This document shows positions 1,559 to 58,422 of a stretch of DNA of 64,000 nucleotides, in pieces. Numbering within the stretch: position 1 is the stretch's first letter; every line of letters starts with the position of its first letter. The notes beneath the pieces were generated by a model. The model was given only the letters and a program-made list of their open reading frames with translations, ran no database searches and was not told the DNA's origin. A program made the translations under genes and the position numbers. The DNA is from a virus, in IMG/VR virus record IMGVR_UViG_3300017971_000007. One strand, written 5' to 3'.

Positions 1559-4500
1559 ATGCCAGGAACTACAGATTTAAAAGAATTTGTCGAGGAAAGA
1601 CTTCTAGCGTATGACCCGGACATAGACATTACTGATGATTCTCCAGCTCAAATCACTATCATCGACCCCATAGTTAGAAGATTTACTCCAGACCCGTTTG
1701 AAATGGACATAGAGTCGTTCATAAGGGCGAGGTTGGAGCAGGAATACCCCGGTTTAAACGCCGACGAGGGTGAGGCCTTGGCCGACCTTCTTATAAAGCC
1801 TGTCGAGGCGTTACTCGATCCAATAATCAGGGAAGTGCAGTTTCTGAGAAACAACAAGTCTCTATCTGACCCAGAGATATTATCTCCTCAGGAAGCTGAT
1901 TCTCTGATGGGAAATATTTTCGTGAGAAGGAACAGAGGTGGTCTGTCTGTGGGGGTGGTTAGAATATGGTTTAATTCTCCGACAGCCGTTTTCGTGACAG
2001 TAGGCAACGTCGCTTCCACGGGAGACGGTCTTAATTTCATACCTTCATCTCCCCAATCGATATCAGCGGAACAGATGATGTTCAATCAGGACGGGAATCT
2101 GTTCTATATGGACGTATCGTTTCAAGCAGAGCAGGAGGGAGACGAGTACAACGTCGAACCGCGGACAATAACCAGCATCTCTAATCTTCCTGCAGCTGTT
2201 AAGGTTCGGAACCTCTATCGCTTTAGGGACGGGACTCCAGAAGAATCTACTCTAGCTTTTATCGATAGAGGGGAAAACAGCCTCACTGAAAGGTCGCTGG
2301 TAGTCCCCCGCGGTGTGTTAGCTACCTTATTCGACCAGTTTGGAGAGCTCCAGCATATCCAAGTAGTCGGATTCAACGACCCGGAGATGATGAGGGATGT
2401 GTTGAAGGGAGGAGGACTGGGAAGCGCTATCATATACGGCGTAGATGGAGCCTCATCTGATGACGGGGACGGGGATGGATACTCCGATATATTCGAAAGT
2501 GCGGGCGGAGGGTTTATAGAGAACATCGGACCTGTCGGTTCTGTGTCCGATTTCGTTCTCATAATTGAAGACAAGGACTATCCGATTCTGGAAGTTATTA
2601 GTGACACGATGCTAAAAGTTGGGGCATCGTTTGTTCTTGGCTCAGACCCGATAGAACCTCCACCTCATCCCGATATGCCGGATAATTTATCCGGGGCTCA
2701 GTTTCTGATAAGAAAGTCCTTGATAAATCTCTCAGATATTCCTGGTGGGATATTTAAAGTAGTGACATCCAATGGAATCCTTACTGTAAGAAATGATGAG
2801 GTACACATCGGGGGATGCACCGATTTCTATATCAGAGGGACTTCTCTAGAAGAAAGTGAGCAGGTACTAGAAGCTGTCACTGATGAGCAACCTCTCATGG
2901 AAGGCCTGACTCTGGACACGAAAGTGACAGGACTTCCGGAAGATGTTGTTCGAGATCTTTCACTAGATTCTAACAATAATTTCTTAACTAATGGTGTTCA
3001 GCCTGGTCATACTCTCGTCATAGAAACAGATGCCGGTAGTGCCGGTACATATCACATAATCAAGGTCTCACCAGATGGAGCCATCAATACTCTGCAGGTA
3101 GACCCTGCTCCTCCAGCTACCGTCTCCAATCAAAAATACAAGATAGTAGACAATATAGATGTAAATCTTGTTGAACCGAAGACAGTGAGGGGAAGTGGGA
3201 CAGACCTGAAAACTGTTATGGGGAGTACCCAAGTTTCCACAGTCAGTGAAGTGGACTTCGATCAATTAGGAGTCGAGCAAGGAGATGTCCTTAGAATATC
3301 CGGGGAGTCTGTGAACGCCGGTGATTATAACGTCGAGCAAATTGTGGGGACCGGTAACATATCTCTGGTTCTGGGAACTCCATTAAGGAAAACCTCCAGC
3401 TCAGAGACTTGGCAGGTATTCAAGGCCCAGGAAGTTATGAATCTGCCTACAATCAGAATAACCAGTTTAGAGTTATTGGATAGTTCCAAACAACCGACCG
3501 GAGAGACTATCCCGTATGCTGACCCGATTGATATCCAATCGTATGCTTTCTCAAATATGGGAATCGGGGAAAAGATTCAAGTCAATGACGCGGTAATCGG
3601 GATACTGTCCGAACCCATAATCACCCCTTCTCTTCTGGACGGTAAGGCGCTGAAATTTACTATAAATAACGGGACTATCATAACCATAACATTCAGCGGA
3701 ATCACTACAGTACAGGACGCTGTAGATCAGATAAATGCGGGCTCGTCTGGATACAATATTGCTGCCGTGTACGAGACAGACGAAGGGACGAGATTGTCCA
3801 TCCGTTCTAGAAACAATTGGATTCAGATAAATCCATACGGTTCTGCTAACGAAGTCTTTGGGTTCTCGGCGACAGTTTCTGAGGATAACAGGCAGCTGAA
3901 GAGTGAATCTGTCTCAGATTGGACAGCTGAGTCTTTGGACATAGAAGCTGAATCCGATGTTGTCTATATACTGACCGGTTCAAACATAGAATTCTGGTAC
4001 ATTCATGCCGTGGAGGAAAACAGGTTACTAATTTCCAGAGTCGAAGATGGGAGGGCGGTATTCCCTCTAACCGATAGCAGGGCCAGCTCCAGAATAGGTT
4101 CCAGGTCTTTCGGAAAACTTAGATGCTATTTTCTTGAGCCTACTTCGTTCGAGGTAAGAGGCTCGTACAGAAAAGCAGCCATCAGTGACTACAGCCCGAA
4201 CACAATCTACGGGAGCATTGTAAGAGATGAGCCCGCAAGAACAGAATTTTCATTGGATGTATTCGGAGATGAATCAGCGTTTTATAAATTCTTTCCAGAC
4301 CCGACTCTGCAGCATCAGGTCCTGCCGGCTACAGAGGAGCAGGTTCCAGACAATCTACTAATAAACCAGATTGGGGATAAATTTGTTGAGAGTGAAAACG
4401 CTCCAGCTTCCGGGATAGGAAAGGATTCAAGAAGCGACGAAATAGATTTCCTCCTAAGAGAGATTCTCCCAGGGGATATCCTAGAGATAACATATCAGCC

Positions 4501-5689
4501 CATTCAGGGAACGGCTGATATAAGGGCCACTCCGACGGGTACAATTGACTACGACCCAGATACAGGAAATATCGTTACGAAAACTCTTGTTATTTCTATG
4601 GAGAACGGACCAGATAAGACTGTTACATTCTCTGCAGAAGTAGATGGGCCAGATAGATTAGCCGCGGAAATAAATAACCAACTTGGAGAGACCATAGCTT
4701 ATGTAGAAACGGAGTCAGTTAGCGGAGAGAAGTATCTCAGATTAGAGGCGGACTTCTTTTTCAACGTCAGGTCCGCTGGGACAGCAAATTCGGTATTAGG
4801 CCTTTCGTATTTAAACAACTACGCTCAGGCCAGAGGAAAATATGTCATATCTGATGCCGGGTATGTATCAGGATCAACATCCAATCACATGAGACTGAGT
4901 ATCAGCCATCCAATCGATTCAAGTCCTGGCGCATGGACAGGATTCGATTCCACTCAGATTGGACCGTCCCAACATTTTAAAATCTACAGGCCTGGTGTCC
5001 AGAGAGTTAGTTCTACAGAAATGCAGGATAATGTGGACGGGACTCTTTATTACGCGGATATAGAGGTTGTGTCCGAAGGCCCTGGAGATGAATTCAATAT
5101 CGATGCCGACCTTCAACTTGATGTAGATGATCATAAATCTGACGGATATACGCTGTATAATACCGACGAGAACATGGCATTTTCAGAATTTGAAGACATT
5201 AGGATGATTCTTAGCAGAAGATTCCTAACTCCCGGTTCGACGGATTCGCCAGAAAATATGACCCTGATTTCCCAACAAAACATCCAGATCAATTACGAGC
5301 GTTCATCTTTAGTAGAGCAGATACAGAGTTTCGCGAACTCAGATTTGGACAGAGTTCTGAATGCGAGTATCCTTGTCAGACATCTTGTTCCTCATTTCAT
5401 ACAATTTGAGCTGAATTATTCTGGCGGGTCCCAATCATCAGTAGTCGAATCAGACATCACGGACTTAATAGATGGGCTGCTTCCGGATGAGATTCTGGAA
5501 TCCTCCGCCATCGCAGAATTAGTCAGAAAAAGGGGAGCATCGAGGGTAGAAATGCCTATAGATATGATTGGGGTGGTTCATCAAATTGATAGGAAGATAC
5601 GGGCGATGAGATCTCAGGATTTTATAAGCAGAGGCAGACTTTCTACATTCATCTCTGACAATATCCAGATAACTAGGGAATCGATTTAG
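1559..5689 (+). CDS. very large Baseplate-J / gp6-like wedge protein with multiple inserted beta-domains
   Basis: J-like segments ADSLMGNIFVRRNRGGLSVGVVRIWF and QAEQEGDEYNV...VRNLYRFRDGTPEES; 1376 aa; context between gp25-like and gpI-like genes. Confidence 0.75.
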   Translation: MPGTTDLKEFVEERLLAYDPDIDITDDSPAQITIIDPIVRRFTPDPFEMDIESFIRARLEQEYPGLNADEGEALADLLIKPVEALLDPIIREVQFLRNNKSLSDPEILSPQEADSLMGNIFVRRNRGGLSVGVVRIWFNSPTAVFVTVGNVASTGDGLNFIPSSPQSISAEQMMFNQDGNLFYMDVSFQAEQEGDEYNVEPRTITSISNLPAAVKVRNLYRFRDGTPEESTLAFIDRGENSLTERSLVVPRGVLATLFDQFGELQHIQVVGFNDPEMMRDVLKGGGLGSAIIYGVDGASSDDGDGDGYSDIFESAGGGFIENIGPVGSVSDFVLIIEDKDYPILEVISDTMLKVGASFVLGSDPIEPPPHPDMPDNLSGAQFLIRKSLINLSDIPGGIFKVVTSNGILTVRNDEVHIGGCTDFYIRGTSLEESEQVLEAVTDEQPLMEGLTLDTKVTGLPEDVVRDLSLDSNNNFLTNGVQPGHTLVIETDAGSAGTYHIIKVSPDGAINTLQVDPAPPATVSNQKYKIVDNIDVNLVEPKTVRGSGTDLKTVMGSTQVSTVSEVDFDQLGVEQGDVLRISGESVNAGDYNVEQIVGTGNISLVLGTPLRKTSSSETWQVFKAQEVMNLPTIRITSLELLDSSKQPTGETIPYADPIDIQSYAFSNMGIGEKIQVNDAVIGILSEPIITPSLLDGKALKFTINNGTIITITFSGITTVQDAVDQINAGSSGYNIAAVYETDEGTRLSIRSRNNWIQINPYGSANEVFGFSATVSEDNRQLKSESVSDWTAESLDIEAESDVVYILTGSNIEFWYIHAVEENRLLISRVEDGRAVFPLTDSRASSRIGSRSFGKLRCYFLEPTSFEVRGSYRKAAISDYSPNTIYGSIVRDEPARTEFSLDVFGDESAFYKFFPDPTLQHQVLPATEEQVPDNLLINQIGDKFVESENAPASGIGKDSRSDEIDFLLREILPGDILEITYQPIQGTADIRATPTGTIDYDPDTGNIVTKTLVISMENGPDKTVTFSAEVDGPDRLAAEINNQLGETIAYVETESVSGEKYLRLEADFFFNVRSAGTANSVLGLSYLNNYAQARGKYVISDAGYVSGSTSNHMRLSISHPIDSSPGAWTGFDSTQIGPSQHFKIYRPGVQRVSSTEMQDNVDGTLYYADIEVVSEGPGDEFNIDADLQLDVDDHKSDGYTLYNTDENMAFSEFEDIRMILSRRFLTPGSTDSPENMTLISQQNIQINYERSSLVEQIQSFANSDLDRVLNASILVRHLVPHFIQFELNYSGGSQSSVVESDITDLIDGLLPDEILESSAIAELVRKRGASRVEMPIDMIGVVHQIDRKIRAMRSQDFISRGRLSTFISDNIQITRESI

Positions 5690-11564: not shown

Positions 11565-14324
11565 ATGGCAGTTCCAACTGTAACATCAGCAACGGTTGAA
11601 GGCGTTAAAGAGAAGGTCTACACTCTCGCAGATTTACCTGTGACCGTGAATTTAAATGGTGCGGCTACAGAATCTCCTACTGGATACGAATGGTCTATTC
11701 GTAATAATAATCCTGATTCTACAAACGAAGGCGGGGTTCCAGAAGCAGCAAGTGGTTTGCTGTCAGGAGTACACGGGGATTTTACCAATGGCTTGTCTAC
11801 GACTCTGGCATCCTCTATTACGCTGAGCCAACCAGGAGCTTATAAATTCTCTCTGCGTGCGCAAAACGGGGAAGGTTGGAGTGACCCCACGTATTATGGT
11901 GATAGGGGAGATTGTGAATGCATCGTACGGATAAAGAATGAGTACGGTAGTGAGAGAGTCGCACCAAATGAATTTCGTTATGAGAACACTCTCAACGCGC
12001 TTCTTGACACATTAGAAGAGAATGCCATTGGATCCTCATCTCCCATATTCATCCCTTCTCTTTGGATAAAACCAGAAACACCCCATGCTGAGGATGACGA
12101 ATTTGAATCTGAAACATTGAGTGGATGGACTGAAAGCTTTACTGCTTCAGCATCTGCGATAGACCCTTATGCTAAATTTGCATCTGGAGACCCTCGTAGA
12201 GTAGTTCACACAAAGCCATATAGAAGTTGGTATTTAATACAGCCGCCAGCGGATTCTACTCCATATTTTTTGCACAAGGCTGTGACAATACCAACAAATG
12301 CGTTTTTTTGGTTTAGGGTATCTGCTTTTGATCGTACTGCCGCAACATCCAATAACGATGCGTCATTTAATTTTTCTATCTGGGCATCCTCTGGCGGAGT
12401 TCCAGATGAAAATGAAAGAATTGTATTATACGCTAATGAGGTTGATGGCTCTGATTTCAGGTTTCAATTTGATATTGTAAATGGAGGGGTCCCTAATAAT
12501 ATAACGAATGGTTCCGACAGACATCAAAAAGGACAAACATTTGAATTTTTCGGCATTCAAAAGTTTGGTAATACTTTTCATGCCTGGGCATTAACAAACT
12601 CTGGACAGAGATTATACATAGGAAGCGGAAATTACACTGGTGGCGCTACTTTAGATAGAATAGGATTTAGATTTACTAACACAGATTCATCAAGTGACCC
12701 CGGAAATGCTATCATGGGTGTTGATTTCTTCCGTATGGTAGAATCTTCTACCTATTTTCCAGGATACGGCGTTCTAGACATCCCCGGTGCTAATTATTCC
12801 AAACCTGAAAACATCCCCATCCTTTCTTATAATTCGGCCTCCGTTGTCGATATTCAATCTGCGCCTGGAGCCTCATCCGTCCTTCGTGCCGTGCTTAATG
12901 ATGGTTTACGTCGTACGGCTGTTTCCCCTCTGACAGTTGATTTGACGACTTCTGGGCGTGGTGGATTGGATACAGGTTCTGTTGCAGCGAATAAACTATA
13001 CCACATTTACTTAATTCCAGATGCAGCCGGTTCAGGGCTAAGTGCTGTAGCATCACTATCTGGTGTAATAAGCGGAGGACCTACAGGTTTTACCGCCTGG
13101 AGATACTTAGGATTTGTAGCGACTGACGGGTCTACTTTCATTTACCGCTTTCAGCAAACCGGAAGTTTATTCACGTTTACTGATATAGAGGGTATAGCAG
13201 TAAGAGCTGGTAGCGCTGTCGGACCGGATGTTTCAGAGATCACTACTGACATGTCTGATTATTTTCCGGAGACAGGAGCGATGGCAATCTTCCGTGTGCA
13301 TATGAACGGAAGAACGATGAGTAGTACTGAATATACTCTTTCTATTAGAAGTACTACCGGCAATGATGGATTTAAACCCTATGCAAATGACGGAGATGTT
13401 TTTTCGATTGCTTCTCCGCCAATTCCTATTATTACACAGCAAACACTATACAGTATCTTAGAACGTGGTTCCGGCTCATCCAATTTAGATAGCTATTCGC
13501 TACGTCTTAAAGGAATAGTTGATGGCGCGTTATCCTCCTCCGAGGCCCAACTCCAAGCCAAATCCCCTCTTACGACAAAGGGGGATATCTACACATTCGA
13601 TACAGAAGAGACCAGATTGTCTATAGGTTCCGACAATCAAATTTTAACCGCAGACTCATCCGTTCCTGAAGGCGTAAAATGGGCAGATAAGTATTTTTAC
13701 AGCTTTGAGGATAATTTCGATGATTCGAGCCTTAATGCAATATGGACACCTACAGCTCCAGGCAGCTCTTCTGTCGTTGAAGGCTCAGATGGAGTTGTGC
13801 TAACGGCCGACGGCGATGATGACCCACAAATAGCAATGTCCTTACCGGCGGGGATAACAAATAGAAATTGGATTGCTCAAGTACACCTTACTGTGAGTTG
13901 GACGGGTAGCCCTGGTAATGCTGGAGTTCACTTCTTACGCATAAATGGTTATGGAGGCGGTGTCGCTAAATTTATGCGCTTTGGCGTGCGCTATTTTCTA
14001 GTCGACGGCCATCACCTTCGCGTCAGTGACGACGGTGCGAATGCTGATTCCGCGTTCTCAGTGGCCTCTGCCGTATGGCTCAGAATTCGAAAGCTTGGGG
14101 ATGAAGTCCGTACTGATTACTACGAAGGCGCAGCCACGGTTGATGTAGATGGCGAAGGCCGCTGGATTGAAAACGACTCGTCAAAAGCCTGGTATGTGGT
14201 ACCTAAATCAGGTACCTATGAATACCCAGTGTCGTACACAGAGTTGGTATTACAGGCAACCCAGTCAACAGATAATCCAGGGGCTATAGCCATATTCAGA
14301 AAATTTAAGCTGCATGTGTTCTAA
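11565..14324 (+). CDS. mosaic tail fibre / receptor-binding protein (PKD-like N-terminus, two lectin-like domains)
   Basis: Fibre-type motifs GGLDTGSVAANKLYHIYLI and SPLTTKGDIYTF...RLSIGSDNQILTADSS..GVKWA; lectin-like starts DDEFESETLSGW and FEDNFDDSSLNAIW. Confidence 0.7.
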   Translation: MAVPTVTSATVEGVKEKVYTLADLPVTVNLNGAATESPTGYEWSIRNNNPDSTNEGGVPEAASGLLSGVHGDFTNGLSTTLASSITLSQPGAYKFSLRAQNGEGWSDPTYYGDRGDCECIVRIKNEYGSERVAPNEFRYENTLNALLDTLEENAIGSSSPIFIPSLWIKPETPHAEDDEFESETLSGWTESFTASASAIDPYAKFASGDPRRVVHTKPYRSWYLIQPPADSTPYFLHKAVTIPTNAFFWFRVSAFDRTAATSNNDASFNFSIWASSGGVPDENERIVLYANEVDGSDFRFQFDIVNGGVPNNITNGSDRHQKGQTFEFFGIQKFGNTFHAWALTNSGQRLYIGSGNYTGGATLDRIGFRFTNTDSSSDPGNAIMGVDFFRMVESSTYFPGYGVLDIPGANYSKPENIPILSYNSASVVDIQSAPGASSVLRAVLNDGLRRTAVSPLTVDLTTSGRGGLDTGSVAANKLYHIYLIPDAAGSGLSAVASLSGVISGGPTGFTAWRYLGFVATDGSTFIYRFQQTGSLFTFTDIEGIAVRAGSAVGPDVSEITTDMSDYFPETGAMAIFRVHMNGRTMSSTEYTLSIRSTTGNDGFKPYANDGDVFSIASPPIPIITQQTLYSILERGSGSSNLDSYSLRLKGIVDGALSSSEAQLQAKSPLTTKGDIYTFDTEETRLSIGSDNQILTADSSVPEGVKWADKYFYSFEDNFDDSSLNAIWTPTAPGSSSVVEGSDGVVLTADGDDDPQIAMSLPAGITNRNWIAQVHLTVSWTGSPGNAGVHFLRINGYGGGVAKFMRFGVRYFLVDGHHLRVSDDGANADSAFSVASAVWLRIRKLGDEVRTDYYEGAATVDVDGEGRWIENDSSKAWYVVPKSGTYEYPVSYTELVLQATQSTDNPGAIAIFRKFKLHVF

Positions 14325-50651: not shown

Positions 50652-50706
50652 TAGATTGAGACGAGGATCCCGGAGAAGGGCAACCGAGGGACCCAAAGGA
50701 GATACA

Positions 50707-53700
50707 ATGTCTAGACTAGCCCCAGAAGAAAACTTCGAAGCGTTAAAAGAAAAAGTATCAGAAACATTAAAAGGGATATTCCCTATAGAAGGGAAGAATC
50801 AGTCACTAAGGCTGGATGATGTTCTAATCAATGACGATAAAGATATCGATGATTTCAGAACACAGAAGGAGGCAAGACTGAATGGAAGGACGTGGTCCGT
50901 TCCGGTCAGCGCCTCTTTTTCGTTGATAGACAATGAGACCGGAAAAGTAATAAATACTAGGCGGCAGAAAATAATGAACCTGCCAAAAATCACAAGCAGG
51001 CACAGTTACATAGTCGATGGGCAGGAGTATCAAGTCGATAATCAATGGCGGTTGAAATATGGAGTGTATTCCAGAAAGAACGATAAGGGAGAAATAGAGT
51101 CGACGTTTCACACGAGAGGAGCTCCTGGATTTAAACTGAGATTTGATCCAGAATCCTCAAATTTTGTGATGAAGAAAGGAAATTCTGAATTTCCTGCATA
51201 CCCAATTCTCAGGGAGATGGGAGTATCTGACAGCAACATAGAGCAAATTTGGGGAAAGGAGATATTGGAGACAAACAGATCTACTGACCCTAAAAAAGCT
51301 CTTATGAGTTTCCATAGAGCCATTACTGGTACTAAAGCCCAGAATGTGGAGGAGGCGAGAGAGTATATCAAAGATTATATGGCAAAGACTGATATGGATG
51401 AGGATGTAAACAGGATAACTCTGGGAAGGAAGCAAAGTGTAGTTGACGGGAATCTGATGCTGGAGGCGAGCGGAAAGCTGCTGGGAATAAGTCGGGGGAC
51501 TAAGAAACCGGATGTAAGAGATTCTCTCATCTTTAAATCTTTCCACTCTACAGAAGATTTCATTTCCGAGGCCCTGACCAATAGATCTAGAGATATACTG
51601 AAAAAAATAAGAAATAATTTAGACAGAAAGCAGCAGGTAAAAGAAATAATCGGCACTGACTTATTCAACAAGCCCATAGCCCACGCATTCACAAAAACAT
51701 CTCTATCGAATCACGTCGATCAGACGAATCCTTTGGAGATGTTATCTGGAGCAATGAAGACAACGATAATGGGAGAGGGCGGAATAAAGGACGCTCATAA
51801 AATAACTGATGACGCGAAATTGGTCGATGAGTCTCATCTTGGATTCCTAGACCCAATCCATACTCCAGAATCTGATAGAAGCGGGATTACGTTGCACTTA
51901 CCGGTTGGGGCGTACAAGAAAGGAAATACTGTCGTAAATAAGCTTTACAACCTAAAAACCGGGAAGATGGAAGAGGTAGACCCAGAAAAAGCCTATAATT
52001 CGAAAATAGCTCTGCCAGACCAAGTTAAATGGGTGAAAGGGAAACCGGTTGCTCTGCATGACGAGGTAAAGATGAGCGGCCAGGAGAACGAGATTATAAC
52101 TGGATCGTTAAAAGATGCAGATTATGCTGTAACGTCCCCAGTTCAGCTGTTCTCCATCGCCTCGAACATGGTCCCATTTCTTCAAAACAATAGCGGGAAC
52201 AGAGCCACGTATGCCGGAAAGCAGATGGAGCAGGCCCTGTCCTTAAAGCATAGAGAAGAACCTCTAGTCCAGACAGCTATAGTCTCTGGAAGGCCTGAAT
52301 CCAGCTTAAATGAGTTTGTCGGAAGGATTAATTCCCAGAGATCTCCTATAAACGGGGAAATTGTGGAAGTAAAGAACGACGCGATTATTGTGAAGGGAGA
52401 GGATGGAAAGAATAGAGAAGTTCAAATCTATGACAATTTCCCTCTAAATGACGACAAATCATTTATGCACTCAGACCCGATTGTGAAGGTCGGAGACAAA
52501 GTAAAGAAGGGTCAGACGTTAGCTGATACGAATTTCTCGAAAAACGGGAAACTGGCGATAGGTACAAATTTAAAAGCCGCATATATCCCGTTCAAAGGTT
52601 ACAACTTCGAGGACGGGATAGTGATAAGTGAGTCCGCGGCCAAGAAACTCACTAGTGAGCATATGAAGAGAAAGTCCTTGGATGTGACTAGCGAGCATAT
52701 TCAAGACAAAAATAAATTTATAGCCTATGAGAGGGCAAATATAAATCAGGAACAGGCCGACAAGCTCAGTGACGACGGGATCATAAAAAAAGGAAGTCTT
52801 GTAATGCCTGGAGATACGCTAATAGCGGCTTTAAAGAAGAGGGAGGAAACAGACGAGGCTAGAATAAAAGCCAAGATGCACAAATCCCTGGTCAAGCCCT
52901 ACGATAACGTATCTGTGAAATGGGAAAGTGATTATCCGGGAGTAGTTACCGGAATCGTAAAAAAAGGTGGAAAGACTGAGGTCCATGTTAGGACGGAAGA
53001 GCCTGCTGAAATCGGAGACAAACTTTGTGGGAGGTCTGGGAACAAGGGCATTATCACAAGAATAATTCCAGACCATGAGATGCCGAAGACTAAAGATGGG
53101 GAGCATGTCGAAATAGCTCTTAACCCGACTGGTGTAGCAGGAAGAATAAATCTGGGGCAGATTCTGGAAACGGCTGCCGGAAAAATTGCTCAGAAGACAG
53201 GAAAGCCTTACACGGTTCAGAATTTCGATGGGACAGAGGATATGACAGAGAGGGTTTCCAGAGAGCTAAAAGCTCATGGCATAGAGGATAAGGAGGAATT
53301 AGTTGACCCCAAAACCGGAAAAGTTATGGGAAAGGCCTTAGTAGGTCCGCATTATATTCACAAACTAAAACACCAGGTAGAGAAAAAATTAGTAGCTAGA
53401 GCAGGAGGCCCTGGATATCTGTATGACATGAACAAGATTCCGAAGAGTGGTTCAAGACCCGGACTCGGAGCTCAGGCTATGGATGCCTTAGGCATGTACG
53501 CGATGTTAGCGCACGGAGCAAACGCTAATGTTAGGGAGATGGCCACTTATAAAAGTGATGCAGAGAATAATGATAGGCTTTGGTCTTCGATTCAAGCTGG
53601 GGATGTTCTCCCTCCTCCAAGACCATCATTTGCGTACAACAAGTTCATTGATTTGCTGAAAGTAGCTGGGGTAAACACCGTAAAAGAAGGAAACTCCCTG

Positions 53701-56700
53701 AATCTGGTTCCCATAACTGACAAGCAGATACTTGAGATGAGTAATGGGGAAATCAAAGATGCTGGGAGAATTGTAACGGCTAAGGACATTAAAGAGGAAA
53801 AAGGCGGTCTCCTGGATAAGCAAATAACTGGAGGGGTGAGTGGAACGAAATGGTCGCACATAACACTTCCGGAAAAAATGCCCAATCCTATCTTCGAAAA
53901 AAGCATCGTCTCCCTAACTGGAATTAAGGCTAAGGAATATGAAGACATCGTATATGGCAGAAAAGCTATCAATACCAAAACCGGGAAAATAGTTCCTCCA
54001 GAAGATGGAATATCCGGCGGTCCAGCCATAGAGCATCTTCTAAGCAAAGTAGACGTCGGAAAAGAGTTGGAGGCTGCAGAAAAACAACTGAACGACCCCA
54101 ACATGAGAGCGGACAAGCTAGACCCCATAAACAAGAAAGTAAAATATCTGAAATCGCTGAAACGGCTGGACATGAATCCGGTTGAGGCTTACATGACCAA
54201 GCATGTTCCAGTTCTTCCGCCGTCTATGAGACCTATCTCAGTTATGCAGGATGGAACCCTAATCCAAGATGATATGAATGGGGTTTATAAAGGTCTGGGC
54301 CTCGTAGTAAATAAATTCAAGGACGCTGACCCTAGCGTTCTCCCGCAGGAGGATATCAATAACAGACGAGGTTCCATATACGATGCTCTGAAGAGCGTGT
54401 CCGGGCTTGGCGGGTACATAAACAGAGAACATAAGGGAGTCCTAGATATCATAAGTGGTAAATCAGCATCCAAAGACAGTGACCTGAAAAGCGGAAGTCC
54501 TAGAGATTCGTATTTCCAAAGCAAGCTCATAAAAAGGAAACAGGACCTGTCTATGCGCTCCACAATCATTCCTGAGCCTGAATTAAGCCTGGACCAGGTA
54601 GGGATCCCCAGACAGGCGGCAATGGAAATCTACAAACCGTTTGTCATGAAAGAGATTAGAGGGATGACTGGTGTGTCCCCTCTTCAAGCCCAAAAACTGG
54701 TAGAGAAGGGAGATACTCTAGCAAACAGGGCGCTGGAAAGGGTTGTAGAGAATAGACCGCTTCTAATGAAAAGAGACCCAGTTCTTCACAAGTACGGGGT
54801 CCAGGCATTCAAGCCTATTCTCACTAGCGGAAAAGCGATAAAGATTCATCCGCTAGTGACATCAGGATTTAATGCAGATTTCGACGGGGATCAACAAATA
54901 AACACGGTATTCGCGTTAGTTCCTAGAGATATGTATAATCACGATTCTGGATTTTGGGGTGCACGGAAAGTAGGAATGAGCGCAAGATTTAAAGAGACTG
55001 TCGGATATCTAGAGTCCATGGATGGAGAATTCGCGGTCTGTAATTTGGAAGATTTCCCTAGAGAGAAGAAATTAAAATCCAAAGATCATATCGACTTCTG
55101 GACCGTACCCAATGGAATAAAGGTCGTGGCAATGGATGAGAGGACAAATCAACCTGTTTTGGCTGATGTCAGCGGATGGTCATTTCATAGGAAACGAAAG
55201 GTTCAGATTGTAGAGCTCGGCAGCGGCAGACAGATAATAACTGATGATGATGAGAGGGCTGTATATGGAATAGATGTATCTTCATTAAAATGGTGTAGGA
55301 AGAGACCTGATGAATCCAAGAATCAGTTTGTCCCGGTGCTGAGTAAGATCCCTGTTCCGGATGAGCTCATAACACGGATACCGCTTCCAGATTCTCCTCG
55401 TTTGAGAAAGGAAGCTCGTTTAGACGGGCAATTTGGATATTTTTTAGGAACAATGATTGGGAATGGATGGCCTGGAATCTCAAAAGGTGTTCCTAGAGAC
55501 GTCTGCTTTTCTACAGAATATGATTCCGTATATGATGCCTGGTTTGAGTCTCTCCTTTCTGTATTCAAGAAACACCCGAATATCTATTACAGGAGTACAA
55601 CCAGAGGTCAATTTAAAGGATCAGAGGGGTCTGAATCGCAAATTGTTTCCTGTGCCCCGCTAGCGGTTCTAATCAAGGAGTTGATAGGAAGTGGGGCAGA
55701 GAACAAACACCTTCCCCCATTCTATATCTCCGCTCCGAACATATTTATTAAGGGATTGTTAGCTGGTTTGTGGGATACCGATGGTTCTGTTTCCTGGTCC
55801 GAAGGAAAGAGAACTCCACAATTCATGTGTTCATATACATCAAAATCCATTCGACTGGTGCAGGAGATACAACAACTTCTAAGAATGCTAGAAATATCAT
55901 CAACAATTACCTCTACAGTAACGCCTGCTGGGGAGCCGTTTTGGGTACTAAATGTTTCGATTGTTGATTTCCATAGGTTTGGTGGATTCCCTCTTAAGAA
56001 TAGAAGGAAGAAAGAGATACAGGATGAATTTCTGAGGGAGAAGCAGCCAGATTCTTCTATGTCATATAGTCGTTACAGATTGGTTCCTGTCCCATCTGCT
56101 TTAGCAAATGAATTGAGGACTGTTCTTGGTTCGAGTTGCAGGACCTTATACGTTACTTTGTCGAAAGCTATAGAACGTCAGTATGTGTCAAAAGAGACTG
56201 CCGTGAGAATAATTAAGATAGTAGGGGAGAGATGCAGACATCCTTTATACTCTGAATGGAAATCCATCGTTCTTATGAATAACGTCCATTTTGAGAGAGT
56301 TAAGGGAGTCAAGAAAACGGAAATAAGAGAGGACGGATACGACCTTACTGTTCCTGGATACGAGACTTTCATGTCTCTAGACGGAGTAATTCTATCAAAT
56401 ACAATGTCTGCCTTCGTTCCTATCTCTTCCGAGGCCGTATCAGAGGCCGCAAAAATGTTCCCGTCTAGGAACTTGTTTAATCCGGCAACAGGGTCCCTGA
56501 TGTATAAACCCACACTAGAAAGTCAATTAGGACTGTACATGATGTCCAAAGACGGGGACATCAAAGACAAGTCTTTCAAGACCTTCCAGGAGGCCGCCGA
56601 TGCAGCTAAAAAAGGACAGATAGCTTTCACTGATGTAGTGAAGATAGGAAAGGATAAGACTACAGTCGGTAAGATGATGATAGCCAACTCTCTTCCTGAG

Positions 56701-58422
56701 GAGATGCGCCGGGAGATAATTACAGGCGGGGAAATGACGGGTAAGAGACAGGCAGAAATTCTTACTAGAGTAGCTAAAGAGCGTAAGGCAGATTTCGGGC
56801 AGGTAGCGGATAAGTTCAAGGATATGGGAAATACGTATTCCTCAGAAACGGCGTTCTCTCTGGGAATAGAGGACCTAAAAACTGATAAATCCAGACGTAA
56901 TAGGATACTAGAAGAAGCTGATAGACGGGTTAAACAGGCTCTAAAATCAAAAGACCCAAACAAAGCCTTGAAAGATGTGGTCAGTGTCTACGATAAAGCA
57001 TCTGAGAAGATGATTGAGACCATAGAAAAGGAACACGGGAAAAAGCCGACAAACCTATTCAATATGATGAAATCTGGAATCAAGCCTCAGATGGAAGCCT
57101 ATCGACAAATCACCATGGCCCCGATGTTGGTCATGAATGCCAAGGGCGAAGTGATTCCTAATCCAATCAGAAAATCATGGTCTGAGGGATTAGACACAGG
57201 AGACTACTGGACTCAGATGTCCGGAGCTCGAAAAGGTGTCATCCAGAAGGTCCAGTCTGTTAAAGACCCAGGATATTTCACCAAACAAGTAGTAAATACT
57301 GTCATGAACAACAGCATCTTGGCCGAAGATTGCGGAACAAAGAGAGGGATAAGTCTGGATGTGAGTGAGAAAGATATCCTGGACAGATATCTTTCTGAGG
57401 ATATCAAAGTCGGAAACAAGGTCCTGAAGAAAGACACTCTGATAACTCCAGGAGTCAGAGACACTTTGAGGAATAATAAAGTCAATAAGGTATTAGTGAG
57501 GTCACCCTTAAGATGCGAGCACGGAAGGGGTCTATGCAGTAGATGTTATGGACTGGATGAGAATGGAGAAAATGTTACCACAGGGAAGAATGTTGGAATT
57601 GTTAGTGCTCAATCTATAGGAGAGAGAGCGACCCAACTATCTATGAAGACATTCCATTCAGGTGGTGTAGCCCCTGTAGGGGAGAAGTCTAAACAACAGG
57701 CGGCGTTGACTGATGGGTTTAATAGGGTCCAGCAGTTGGTCCAGATGAACAAAACTGTTCCCGGTTCAGCTACACTAAGCACTGTGAACGGTGTCGTGGA
57801 CAGTGTCAGCAAAGACAAAGCCGGAGGATATAGCGTGGTTATTAGCGGAGTCAGGCATTACATACCTCAGGATAGGGGAGAACCGATGGTTTTCTCTGGA
57901 AATAAGGCCGTTCCCATTACCAAGGGATCAAAGATTCAAAAGGGAGCGCCGCTATCTGGGGGTCCGATAAATCCGCATGAGATGTTGCCATTGACTGGAA
58001 TAAACAAGGTCCAGAGTTATGTATCTGGGGCTTTGCATGATCTATATAAGAGTGAGGGGATTAGGCGGAGAAATATCGAAACTGCAGTCAAGAGCATGAC
58101 TAATCTCACCAAGATAAGAAATCCAGGAGATAACCCCGAATTCATAAGAGGGGATTTTGCGCCTACCTCATACGTGCAGGCTCTGAATAAGCAGCTAGTC
58201 AAGGACAAGCGAAAGCCTATAGAGCACACTCCCGTTATCAAGGGAGTAAAAACCATGCCCCTGGACATTCAAACGGACTGGATGGCAAGATTAAACCATG
58301 AACGTCTGACTGATACCGTAATCGATGCAGCAAACCAGGGATGGAAGTCCGATATACACGGAACCCATCCGATTCCGGCTCTGGTCTATGGAGCAGAGTT
58401 TGGCAAAGGAAAACCATACTAA
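50707..58422 (+). CDS. rpoBC: single-polypeptide beta-beta' two-barrel RNA polymerase (bacterial-like), interrupted by an intein-like element
   Basis: beta motifs DQTNPL, TPES, GYNFEDGIVISE, GDKLCGRSGNKG, LNPTGVAGRINLGQ, KLKHQV; beta' motifs PVLPP..RP, RDPVLH, NADFDGD, GARKG, RSPLRC, AQSIGERATQLSMKTFH. Start reassigned to the ATG at 50707 (AAAGGAG RBS). Confidence 0.95.
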   Translation: MSRLAPEENFEALKEKVSETLKGIFPIEGKNQSLRLDDVLINDDKDIDDFRTQKEARLNGRTWSVPVSASFSLIDNETGKVINTRRQKIMNLPKITSRHSYIVDGQEYQVDNQWRLKYGVYSRKNDKGEIESTFHTRGAPGFKLRFDPESSNFVMKKGNSEFPAYPILREMGVSDSNIEQIWGKEILETNRSTDPKKALMSFHRAITGTKAQNVEEAREYIKDYMAKTDMDEDVNRITLGRKQSVVDGNLMLEASGKLLGISRGTKKPDVRDSLIFKSFHSTEDFISEALTNRSRDILKKIRNNLDRKQQVKEIIGTDLFNKPIAHAFTKTSLSNHVDQTNPLEMLSGAMKTTIMGEGGIKDAHKITDDAKLVDESHLGFLDPIHTPESDRSGITLHLPVGAYKKGNTVVNKLYNLKTGKMEEVDPEKAYNSKIALPDQVKWVKGKPVALHDEVKMSGQENEIITGSLKDADYAVTSPVQLFSIASNMVPFLQNNSGNRATYAGKQMEQALSLKHREEPLVQTAIVSGRPESSLNEFVGRINSQRSPINGEIVEVKNDAIIVKGEDGKNREVQIYDNFPLNDDKSFMHSDPIVKVGDKVKKGQTLADTNFSKNGKLAIGTNLKAAYIPFKGYNFEDGIVISESAAKKLTSEHMKRKSLDVTSEHIQDKNKFIAYERANINQEQADKLSDDGIIKKGSLVMPGDTLIAALKKREETDEARIKAKMHKSLVKPYDNVSVKWESDYPGVVTGIVKKGGKTEVHVRTEEPAEIGDKLCGRSGNKGIITRIIPDHEMPKTKDGEHVEIALNPTGVAGRINLGQILETAAGKIAQKTGKPYTVQNFDGTEDMTERVSRELKAHGIEDKEELVDPKTGKVMGKALVGPHYIHKLKHQVEKKLVARAGGPGYLYDMNKIPKSGSRPGLGAQAMDALGMYAMLAHGANANVREMATYKSDAENNDRLWSSIQAGDVLPPPRPSFAYNKFIDLLKVAGVNTVKEGNSLNLVPITDKQILEMSNGEIKDAGRIVTAKDIKEEKGGLLDKQITGGVSGTKWSHITLPEKMPNPIFEKSIVSLTGIKAKEYEDIVYGRKAINTKTGKIVPPEDGISGGPAIEHLLSKVDVGKELEAAEKQLNDPNMRADKLDPINKKVKYLKSLKRLDMNPVEAYMTKHVPVLPPSMRPISVMQDGTLIQDDMNGVYKGLGLVVNKFKDADPSVLPQEDINNRRGSIYDALKSVSGLGGYINREHKGVLDIISGKSASKDSDLKSGSPRDSYFQSKLIKRKQDLSMRSTIIPEPELSLDQVGIPRQAAMEIYKPFVMKEIRGMTGVSPLQAQKLVEKGDTLANRALERVVENRPLLMKRDPVLHKYGVQAFKPILTSGKAIKIHPLVTSGFNADFDGDQQINTVFALVPRDMYNHDSGFWGARKVGMSARFKETVGYLESMDGEFAVCNLEDFPREKKLKSKDHIDFWTVPNGIKVVAMDERTNQPVLADVSGWSFHRKRKVQIVELGSGRQIITDDDERAVYGIDVSSLKWCRKRPDESKNQFVPVLSKIPVPDELITRIPLPDSPRLRKEARLDGQFGYFLGTMIGNGWPGISKGVPRDVCFSTEYDSVYDAWFESLLSVFKKHPNIYYRSTTRGQFKGSEGSESQIVSCAPLAVLIKELIGSGAENKHLPPFYISAPNIFIKGLLAGLWDTDGSVSWSEGKRTPQFMCSYTSKSIRLVQEIQQLLRMLEISSTITSTVTPAGEPFWVLNVSIVDFHRFGGFPLKNRRKKEIQDEFLREKQPDSSMSYSRYRLVPVPSALANELRTVLGSSCRTLYVTLSKAIERQYVSKETAVRIIKIVGERCRHPLYSEWKSIVLMNNVHFERVKGVKKTEIREDGYDLTVPGYETFMSLDGVILSNTMSAFVPISSEAVSEAAKMFPSRNLFNPATGSLMYKPTLESQLGLYMMSKDGDIKDKSFKTFQEAADAAKKGQIAFTDVVKIGKDKTTVGKMMIANSLPEEMRREIITGGEMTGKRQAEILTRVAKERKADFGQVADKFKDMGNTYSSETAFSLGIEDLKTDKSRRNRILEEADRRVKQALKSKDPNKALKDVVSVYDKASEKMIETIEKEHGKKPTNLFNMMKSGIKPQMEAYRQITMAPMLVMNAKGEVIPNPIRKSWSEGLDTGDYWTQMSGARKGVIQKVQSVKDPGYFTKQVVNTVMNNSILAEDCGTKRGISLDVSEKDILDRYLSEDIKVGNKVLKKDTLITPGVRDTLRNNKVNKVLVRSPLRCEHGRGLCSRCYGLDENGENVTTGKNVGIVSAQSIGERATQLSMKTFHSGGVAPVGEKSKQQAALTDGFNRVQQLVQMNKTVPGSATLSTVNGVVDSVSKDKAGGYSVVISGVRHYIPQDRGEPMVFSGNKAVPITKGSKIQKGAPLSGGPINPHEMLPLTGINKVQSYVSGALHDLYKSEGIRRRNIETAVKSMTNLTKIRNPGDNPEFIRGDFAPTSYVQALNKQLVKDKRKPIEHTPVIKGVKTMPLDIQTDWMARLNHERLTDTVIDAANQGWKSDIHGTHPIPALVYGAEFGKGKPY
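54892..56400 (+). mobile_element. atypical intein with LAGLIDADG homing endonuclease (503 aa) inserted after the RNAP catalytic motif
   Basis: In-frame insert between NADFDGD and TMSAFVPIS; HINT-like segments (KVQIVELGSGRQIIT; YDLTVPGYETF...VILSN|T); LAGLIDADG motifs FLGTMIGNG and LAGLWDTDG. Confidence 0.9.

Follow-up and report, generated by a model that had tools for sequence, protein, structure and literature searches.

How could an intein be removed from its host protein when its first residue is not a nucleophile and its block-B His has been replaced by Asp? The question is raised by the window analysed here, a stretch of 64,000 nucleotides from the IMG/VR virus record IMGVR_UViG_3300017971_000007, in which the gene of a single-chain RNA polymerase (RNAP) is interrupted by an in-frame insert directly behind the last Asp of the catalytic loop, Asp(-1). 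To our knowledge, characterised inteins begin splicing in three ways: by a Cys, Ser or Thr at residue 1, by Cys+1 (KlbA), or by a Cys in block F (the WCT motif). The insert in the window is an intact member of a large, conserved and apparently undescribed intein clade. Judged from sequence comparison, it is probably removed with ligation of the exteins, and its splicing chemistry is plausibly new. The route favoured here, to which a probability of roughly 0.35 is given, would be activation of the N-terminal junction as an anhydride of Asp(-1). The wider proposal is tentative: a fourth mechanistic class, in which the catalytic, Mg-binding Asp(-1) gives the anhydride and Thr+1 captures it, so that neither a nucleophile of the intein nor a block-B His is needed.

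Both junctions were read in one frame (...SGFNADFDGD / QQINTVF...GVILSN / TMSAFVPIS) in the translation of 54700-56600 and in the DNA of 54880-55000. The codon of Gln1 begins at 54892 and that of Asn503 ends at 56400, which gives an insert of 503 amino acids (aa). The original prediction, made from the sequence alone, had placed a 503-aa in-frame insert between NADFDGD and TMSAFVPIS at 54892-56400, and both translation and DNA bear this out; its calls of Gln1, of IITDDDERAVY without His, of Ser502, of GYDLTV and of Thr+1 were each correct. The parts of the insert and its host gene are listed below, with the basis of the assignment in brackets where there is one to name (HINT, the splicing domain; AF2, the AlphaFold2 structure model; pLDDT, its predicted local distance difference test score).

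50707-58422, plus strand: fused single-chain beta-beta' RNAP of 2571 aa, intein included; minus the intein, a compact chain of about 2068 aa.
54871-54891, plus strand: end of the N-extein, the catalytic NADFDGD loop, with Asp(-1) as the third Mg-binding Asp (translation).
54892-56400, plus strand: intein, Gln1 to Asn503, a HINT splicing domain with an inserted LAGLIDADG endonuclease (Pfam, AF2, empty alleles).
54892-54912, plus strand: block A without a nucleophile, QQINTVF (column match to the start of a Ser1 sister clade).
54922-55026, plus strand: family-specific loop of variable length, residues ~11-45, with a W..R...M-S-A-R-F motif (alignment A3, low pLDDT).
55177-55188, plus strand: W-S-x-H motif, with His99 as the counterpart of the NX-motif His (118 homologs, profile alignment).
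55240-55257, plus strand: variant block B, T-D-D-D-E-R, with Asp120 in place of the TxxH His (profile alignment to PI-PkoII).
55435-55470, plus strand: LAGLIDADG motif 1 (GYFLGTMIGNGW), whose usual acidic residue is Asn191 in the window copy.
55753-55788, plus strand: LAGLIDADG motif 2 (GLLAGLWDTDGS), with Asp297.
56335-56370, plus strand: block F (GYDLTVPGYETF), with Asp484 at position F:4.
56383-56400, plus strand: block G, GVILSN, with penultimate Ser502 and terminal Asn503.
56401-56421, plus strand: start of the C-extein, TMSAFVP, with Thr+1 as the presumed acyl acceptor.

A search with residues 1300-2000 of the protein found more than 100 metagenomic proteins that span the whole region at 35-62% identity, and phmmer, run exhaustively against 1.84 billion cluster representatives, returned 208 of them at E<1e-30, a number that rises to 421 at E<1e-10. 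Conservation was counted in an alignment of 118 insert-bearing homologs, the tree held 119 inserts, and motifs were tallied over 220 family proteins. The insert lies directly behind D-x-D-G-D in 118/118 homologs, and His99, Asp120, Arg122, Asp484, Phe493, Gly498, Leu501, Ser502 and Asn503 are invariant in all of them. Trp96 is present in 113 and position 97 is Ser in 116 and Thr in two. Within block B, T117 is T or S in 111, D118 is kept in 117 and D119 in 109 (N in 8); within block F, Y483, L485, T486, V487 and P488 are conserved at 96% or more, and the ETF stretch is nearly invariant. The residue after the insert is Thr in 117 homologs and Ser in one. The tally gave a similar picture, with TDDD in 140 proteins, SDDD in 26 and TDND in 15 (the pattern (T/S/A)D(D/N)D in about 195), W-S-x-H in 194, a penultimate Ser in 211 and Thr+1 in 217.

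Residue 1 behaved otherwise. Gln was found in 61 homologs, Glu in 17, Ala in 8, Cys in 6 and Asp in 5, the others being scattered; among the eight commonest types Cys is the sole nucleophile. At least 46 changes at this position were counted on the tree, and the few members with Cys1 or Ser1 are dispersed and form no clade. Residue 2 is Gln in 90 homologs. The original prediction had asked whether Gln1, TDDD and the terminal Ser-Asn are shared among homologs: Ser-Asn is shared by all, TDDD by most, and Gln1 is not a family trait. It had also weighed a family against a lone degenerate copy. The former is what was found, since over 100 diverged homologs carry inserts of the same peculiarities in this position. 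A lone decayed copy or a sequencing error is ruled out by the more than 200 members at this site and by the window copy, which agrees with the consensus at all 71 columns conserved at 90% or above.

No family member was found in any other host protein, all of the approximately 220 lying at DxDGD/...N/T..VP of RNAP. The GenBank phage collection held no close relative of the insert and gave two weak partial matches only, and full-text literature searches found no published description of the family.

Polymerases that lack the insert were informative in two respects. Among 115 RNAP relatives found with the C-extein, 104 were without it and read NADFDGD followed by xM..VP; insert-less polymerase relatives are 2045-2078 aa long. 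Since these empty alleles match the window protein minus Gln1 to Asn503, precise excision would restore the enzyme, and the exact boundaries of the insert are fixed. Furthermore, the +1 position in the 104 empty alleles is Thr in 52, Ala in 39, Gln in 9, Ser in 2 and Lys in 2. The polymerase tolerates Ala or Gln at this position and Thr is fixed where the insert is present, which indicates that the insert, not the polymerase, needs Thr+1. Of the computational arguments that selection acts on the ester-forming steps of splicing, and not on Asn-mediated cleavage alone, this fixation is the strongest. The original prediction that the insert probably still splices therefore stands for continued processing, which is supported by selection on Thr+1, Asn503, blocks B and F and His99 and by the DFDGD/TM empty alleles; splicing proper is the probable form of that processing. 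As to the conditional switch of RNAP activity that the original prediction also raised, none of the results speaks to it.

The closest RNAPs by C-extein (~65% identity, 2067-2072 aa) are without the insert, and the closest insert (59-62% identity) was found in a more distant RNAP. AT skew is ~0.2-0.3 outside the insert and ~0 within it. The patchy distribution, the conserved LAGLIDADG motifs and the shift in AT skew fit a homing element. The LAGLIDADG nuclease domain named in the original prediction was recovered as LAGLIDADG_3 (PF14528, E 4e-12), and the endonuclease fold was present among the structural matches as well. In motif 2, D295 is conserved in 116 of the 118 homologs, D297 in 113 and G298 in 117. 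Position 191 of motif 1 (window 55462-55464, Asn) is Asp in 76 (64%) and Asn in 40 (34%), and on this ground the predicted endonuclease of the window copy may be a nickase or inactive.

The identification of the insert as an intein was also supported by its predicted fold. An AF2 model built on the 19-sequence alignment A3 reached a mean pLDDT of 81.9 and a predicted template modelling score (pTM) of 0.80, and a HINT fold, which the original prediction had proposed to look for, was recovered. In VIA-align the best match was PI-PkoII (2cw7, Z 25.4, 392 residues); TliVMA, PI-PfuI and PI-SceI were also matched, and the splicing domain of the model matched the mini-inteins RadA, CDC21-1, Aes123 PolB1, TFIIB, DnaB and Npu DnaE with Z 14-17. 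The superposition ran from model residue 10 to 511 against chain residue 4 to the last residue, its first aligned pair (Gln2 against chain residue 4) being of unreliable register and low local pLDDT. Model residues 24-51 had pLDDT below 50, and the length of this loop varies in A3. With a HINT fold whose termini align to intein termini, the model indicates that the insert is an intein by both fold and position. Sequence profiles were less sensitive: the Pfam Intein_splicing match was weak (26 bits against a cut-off of 35.8), all NCBIfam matches were far below threshold, and a single-sequence search of the PDB sequences with the insert gave no matches, whereas a family profile search did align PI-PkoII.

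The Pfam match began at insert residue 77, profile position 22, which prompted the consideration of Cys50 as the true start of the intein. This start was ruled out, as Cys50 is present in 36% of members, block A aligns with a Ser1 start and the empty alleles fix the junction at DGD/Q. An internal Cys (AVCNLED, Cys50), one of the routes in the original prediction, fails likewise, and with it an internal Cys nucleophile of the class 3 kind is ruled out: no conserved Cys column was found in the insert alignment, and WCT is absent.

When the residues of the insert were compared with the signatures of the described classes, the C-terminus agreed with that of an intein (Ser502-Asn503 followed by Thr+1 in the window), and so did the NX-motif His, since His99 aligned in the family profile to the R-H of PI-PkoII and of the TFIIB intein. 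The residue preceding this His is Arg or Lys in ~38% of members and Phe in the window. The N-terminal half differed from each class. Where class 1 has Cys, Ser or Thr at residue 1, and the oxyester inteins Ser1, the window has Gln1, and in the class 1 block-B TxxH motif T117 is present and the His position is the invariant Asp120. As in class 2, residue 1 is non-nucleophilic, yet Thr follows the insert and a block-B His is lacking. The WCT triplet of class 3 is replaced by Arg122 (B:12), Asp484 (F:4) and Leu501 (G:5), all of them invariant. Asp at F:4 is an ordinary class 1 residue, and the original prediction was mistaken in listing it as an anomaly. The combination found is thus no nucleophile at residue 1, Asp at B:10, Asp at F:4, Ser-Asn/Thr and an NX His. 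As a homing intein, the element is of a known kind, but its combined signature matches that of no described class. The earlier statement that the insert belongs to none of the three classes holds for the signature (no residue-1 nucleophile, no WCT, no Cys+1 with His) and is not one to make by mechanism, because the +1 residue may attack directly here, and such an attack is what defines class 2.

The nearest characterised systems are the cysteine-less oxyester inteins with an NX motif (PI-PkoII/Tko Pol-2, the TFIIB mini-inteins, Psp Pol-1 and PolB16 OarG), which have Thr+1 and the NX His in common with the insert. They differ in that Ser1 forms a residue-1 oxyester and the block-B His is kept, whereas the insert has a variable residue 1 (Gln1) and an invariant Asp at B:10. 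The NX motif was defined by Pasch et al. as a His at the N-terminal scissile bond in cysteine-less inteins only, and in PolB16 OarG the block-B His was found to be dispensable (PMC10189870). The class 2 inteins of archaeal KlbA resemble the insert in their non-nucleophilic residue 1, terminal Asn, Asp at F:4 and a start without a residue-1 (thio)ester; they are unlike it in having Cys+1 and a block-B His and in being few, archaeal and confined to a single host protein (PMC2807308). The class 3 intein of mycobacteriophage Bethlehem DnaB is likewise phage-borne, with a non-nucleophilic residue 1 and Thr or Ser at +1, but it carries the WCT triplet, and the insert has neither WCT nor any conserved Cys.

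Two further inteins are comparable in part. That of Pab PolII (PolD DP2) also interrupts a two-barrel polymerase within its acidic catalytic motif, where it follows the first residue of NxDGD (PMC7708050), whereas the insert follows the third. It is moreover a class 1 intein with Cys1 and Cys+1 and a native Asn at -1, and its aspartic acid effect, in which the intein promotes cyclisation of an Asp at -1 and cleavage of the N-junction, is off-pathway and occurs in mutants. The Arthrobacter FB24 intein Arth_1007 (Gly1, WDT) shares with the insert the lack of an N-terminal nucleophile and the Asp at F:4. In contrast to the insert, which belongs to a large family under strong purifying selection, it is a single copy, reported as a pseudogene (PMC3196547, PMC2807308).

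A clue to the origin of the family came from a sister clade of inteins at the same site (L013:2543-4093, L047:2381-3889, P0118, P0174, P0188, P0195 and P0233). These inteins aligned with the window insert over the full length at ~25% identity. They have Ser1 or Cys1, a block-B S-x-x-H and an S-x-H motif, and they end in VVWD (Asp, not Asn) followed by Thr or Cys. Their start, Ser1-[IV]-L-G-[ED]-[VI], matches Q-Q-[LI]-[GN]-[ST]-V of the family column for column, which identifies Gln1 as intein position 1. From this comparison, the clade would be an offshoot of class 1 oxyester inteins with Ser1 and Thr+1, in which the NX His was kept, Ser1 was lost and the block-B His became Asp.

For the chemistry of the first step, activation by Asp(-1) is favoured. 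The HINT active site would fold around the bond between Asp(-1) and Gln1, and the Asp(-1) carboxyl would attack its own backbone carbonyl, giving a cyclic anhydride and setting the residue-1 amine free. Protonation in this step would be adjusted by His99 and by the invariant T-D-D-D block, which, being acidic, could keep Asp(-1) protonated at neutral pH. The anhydride would then be opened at its alpha-carbonyl by Thr+1, giving the usual ester on the C-extein; cyclisation of Asn503 would free the intein, and an O-to-N shift would yield DFDGD-TMSAF. As the residues for the ester on Thr+1, the Asn503 cyclisation and the O-to-N shift are intact, these later steps can be canonical. The predominance of Gln or Glu at residue 1 (66%) might help to drive the reaction forward, since pyroglutamate can form from an N-terminal Gln or Glu once it is freed.

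All of the ~220 family members stand behind DxDGD, as this route demands. In Minteer's 2017 work an intein active site is said to promote such an 'aspartic acid effect', for which a folded site was reportedly needed and Cys1, the terminal Gln and Cys+1 were not. Cleavage of Asp-Xaa bonds through a side-chain anhydride is established chemistry (PMC7897204), and anhydride cleavage at an Asp flanking an intein is cited there as an intein side reaction (Minteer 2017). If true, the Asp(-1) route would explain why Ser1 was lost only at a site with an obligatory Asp(-1), and why residue 1 is free. It would also link the family to neighbouring canonical inteins that end in Asp (VVWD/T) and to the Asn in the catalytic motif of other neighbours (DFDGN/C, DFNGD/S).

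Several points weigh against activation by Asp(-1). Since the polymerase itself requires this residue, its invariance is not evidence specific to the intein, and restriction to a single site is normal for any homing intein. Every family member shares Asp(-1), and comparison within the family thus does not separate the possible routes. An anhydride may also open to isoaspartate, which would damage the Mg site. In Pab PolII the product of the aspartic acid effect, at pH 5, was reportedly a cleaved and not a ligated protein, and mutation of active-site residues reportedly abolished the effect. Finally, the AF2 model is of low confidence in the extein flanks, at Gln1-Gln2 (pLDDT <50) and at insert residues ~16-43.

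It is also possible, if somewhat doubtful, that Thr+1 attacks the Asp(-1)/Gln1 bond directly, in the manner of class 2, and this explanation stands close behind activation by Asp(-1). In this scheme the general base would be His99, and the acid or orienting group would come from the Asp cluster or from Asp484; Asn503 cyclisation and the O-to-N shift would again follow. A residue 1 that is non-nucleophilic and evolutionarily free, comparable to the non-nucleophilic Ala1 of KlbA, is what such an attack predicts, and Thr+1 (117/118), His99, Asp120 and Asp484 are conserved; class 2 inteins moreover provide a precedent for skipping the first step of splicing (PMC2807308). On the other hand, all class 2 inteins known use Cys+1 and retain the block-B His (PMC2807308). 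No intein is known in which a hydroxyl reaches across the active site to attack an amide that has not been activated, and the insert has Asp in place of the His to which activation of the scissile bond is ascribed.

Processing without ligation is unlikely. Here only Asn503 cyclisation would be left, and the enzyme would be a two-chain polymerase, with the intein remaining on the N-chain or later trimmed from it. The losses do fall at the N-terminal junction (the residue-1 nucleophile and the block-B His) and the C-terminal junction is fully canonical, and in one relative, L007, the enzyme is encoded as two genes broken within the intein. C-terminal cleavage by inteins requires no +1 nucleophile, however, and Thr+1 is fixed with the insert where Ala and Gln occur freely in empty alleles. 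The N-junction elements T117, D118-D120, R122 and H99 are conserved as well, and from the structure of RNAP, a domain of ~500 aa left on the catalytic Asp would be expected to lie where the main and secondary channels meet.

Still less likely is a relay resembling class 3, in which Ser97, on the strand of His99 and two positions ahead of it, would take the N-extein as an ester and hand it to Thr+1. Position 97 has a hydroxyl in 118/118 homologs (Ser 116, Thr 2) and adjoins the invariant His99, whose counterpart in PolB16 OarG lies at the N-terminal scissile bond (PMC10189870). However, both the TFIIB intein and the Ser1 sister clade have S-x-H too, so that the motif is older than the loss of Ser1. 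It is very improbable that the insert is inert or decaying, whether in a pseudogenised polymerase or as a tolerated unspliced domain: the sub-threshold scores of the standard intein models (Pfam Intein_splicing, NCBIfam) and Asn191 in place of the usual Asp of LAGLIDADG motif 1 are set against a 2571-codon open frame with intact polymerase motifs, more than 200 diverged members with the same invariant positions, and a window copy that fits every highly conserved column.

The host gene lies in one open reading frame (ORF) at 50656-58422 on the plus strand, with a probable ATG start at 50707. A database protein (P0003, 2571 aa) is 100% identical and starts at Met18 of the ORF, i.e. at base 50707. 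Pfam matches on the ORF were Rpb2_3/Rpb2_6 followed by Rpb1_1/2/3/5, which is the beta-beta' order in a single chain. The frame is open across all 2571 codons and every polymerase motif is intact, so that the original prediction of intact RNAP motifs around the insert was confirmed by both the Rpb2/Rpb1 domains and the frame. Genes nearby encode a family A DNA polymerase, a DnaB-like helicase, a RecA-like protein, a virion-protein domain and many ORFans. The identical protein is encoded on a metagenomic contig of 174.6 kb, and related loci are on IMG/VR viral contigs, indicating an uncultured, large phage. At 1559-24139 on the plus strand, the window has very large ORFs in series (1376, 919, 1194 and 1206 aa) with almost no PHROG or Pfam matches, apart from a Flagellin_IN motif (1559-5689) and a weak PHROG of unknown function (11565-14324). 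These are presumably virion proteins of an undescribed phage group.

The polymerases related to that of the window are variously occupied. Four relatives (P0004, P0005, P0012 and P0030) are up to 3700-3990 aa long and carry extra Intein_splicing, Hom_end and LAGLIDADG matches in Pfam; these phage single-chain polymerases appear to be intein hot spots. Two more types of intein were seen at the same site (P0129, P0138, P0159 and P0171; P0170, P0192 and P0219), reading NADFDGN/C...VVWD/TM and NADFNGD/SC...ITRN/TM, respectively, with Asn within the catalytic triad of the precursor. Canonical splicing of these two types would leave a DFDGN or DFNGD polymerase. In PolD, Asn is tolerated at the first position of the triad only (PMC7708050).

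In the relative L007 (2290-2480 of IMGVR_UViG_3300045988_176085), the polymerase is encoded as two genes with the break inside the intein. The first ends with NADFDGD and 24 further residues (FQVSRV...RLDF, TAG). After a spacer of 56 nt there is an ATG in a different frame, with AAGGAG 8 nt ahead of it, and the second gene begins with MANNV at the family's conserved Met29 of M-S-A-R-F, within the variable loop. The gene arrangement suggests a naturally split intein of atypical form, its N-fragment being very short; the PolB16 OarG intein is also split after a short N-fragment (PMC10189870). In L054:2-4231, TGA occurs twice in frame within a polymerase-intein gene, once exactly at the conserved Trp codon of the W..R motif. 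Read with TGA as Trp (code 4) the gene is a single ORF, and calls with table 11 give false 'IntC-first' proteins (P0250); L054 is probably a stop-codon-recoded phage. Splitting at Met29 was considered as a common feature and rejected, as P0250/L054 is a recoding artefact and four other cases begin at contig ends, leaving L007 as the sole clean split.

This analysis adds the test of Thr+1 by empty alleles, the Ser1 sister clade and the precedent for Asp(-1). Together the inserts form a natural family in which the C-terminal chemistry and Thr+1 are kept by selection, residue 1 drifts and the block-B His is Asp. If splicing is true, its chemistry would lie outside the current classification of inteins, and, being free of cysteine, it would be of practical interest for protein ligation tools. 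As the insert is situated in the most conserved loop of a phage RNAP, transcription in these uncultured phages would depend on the reaction by which it is removed.

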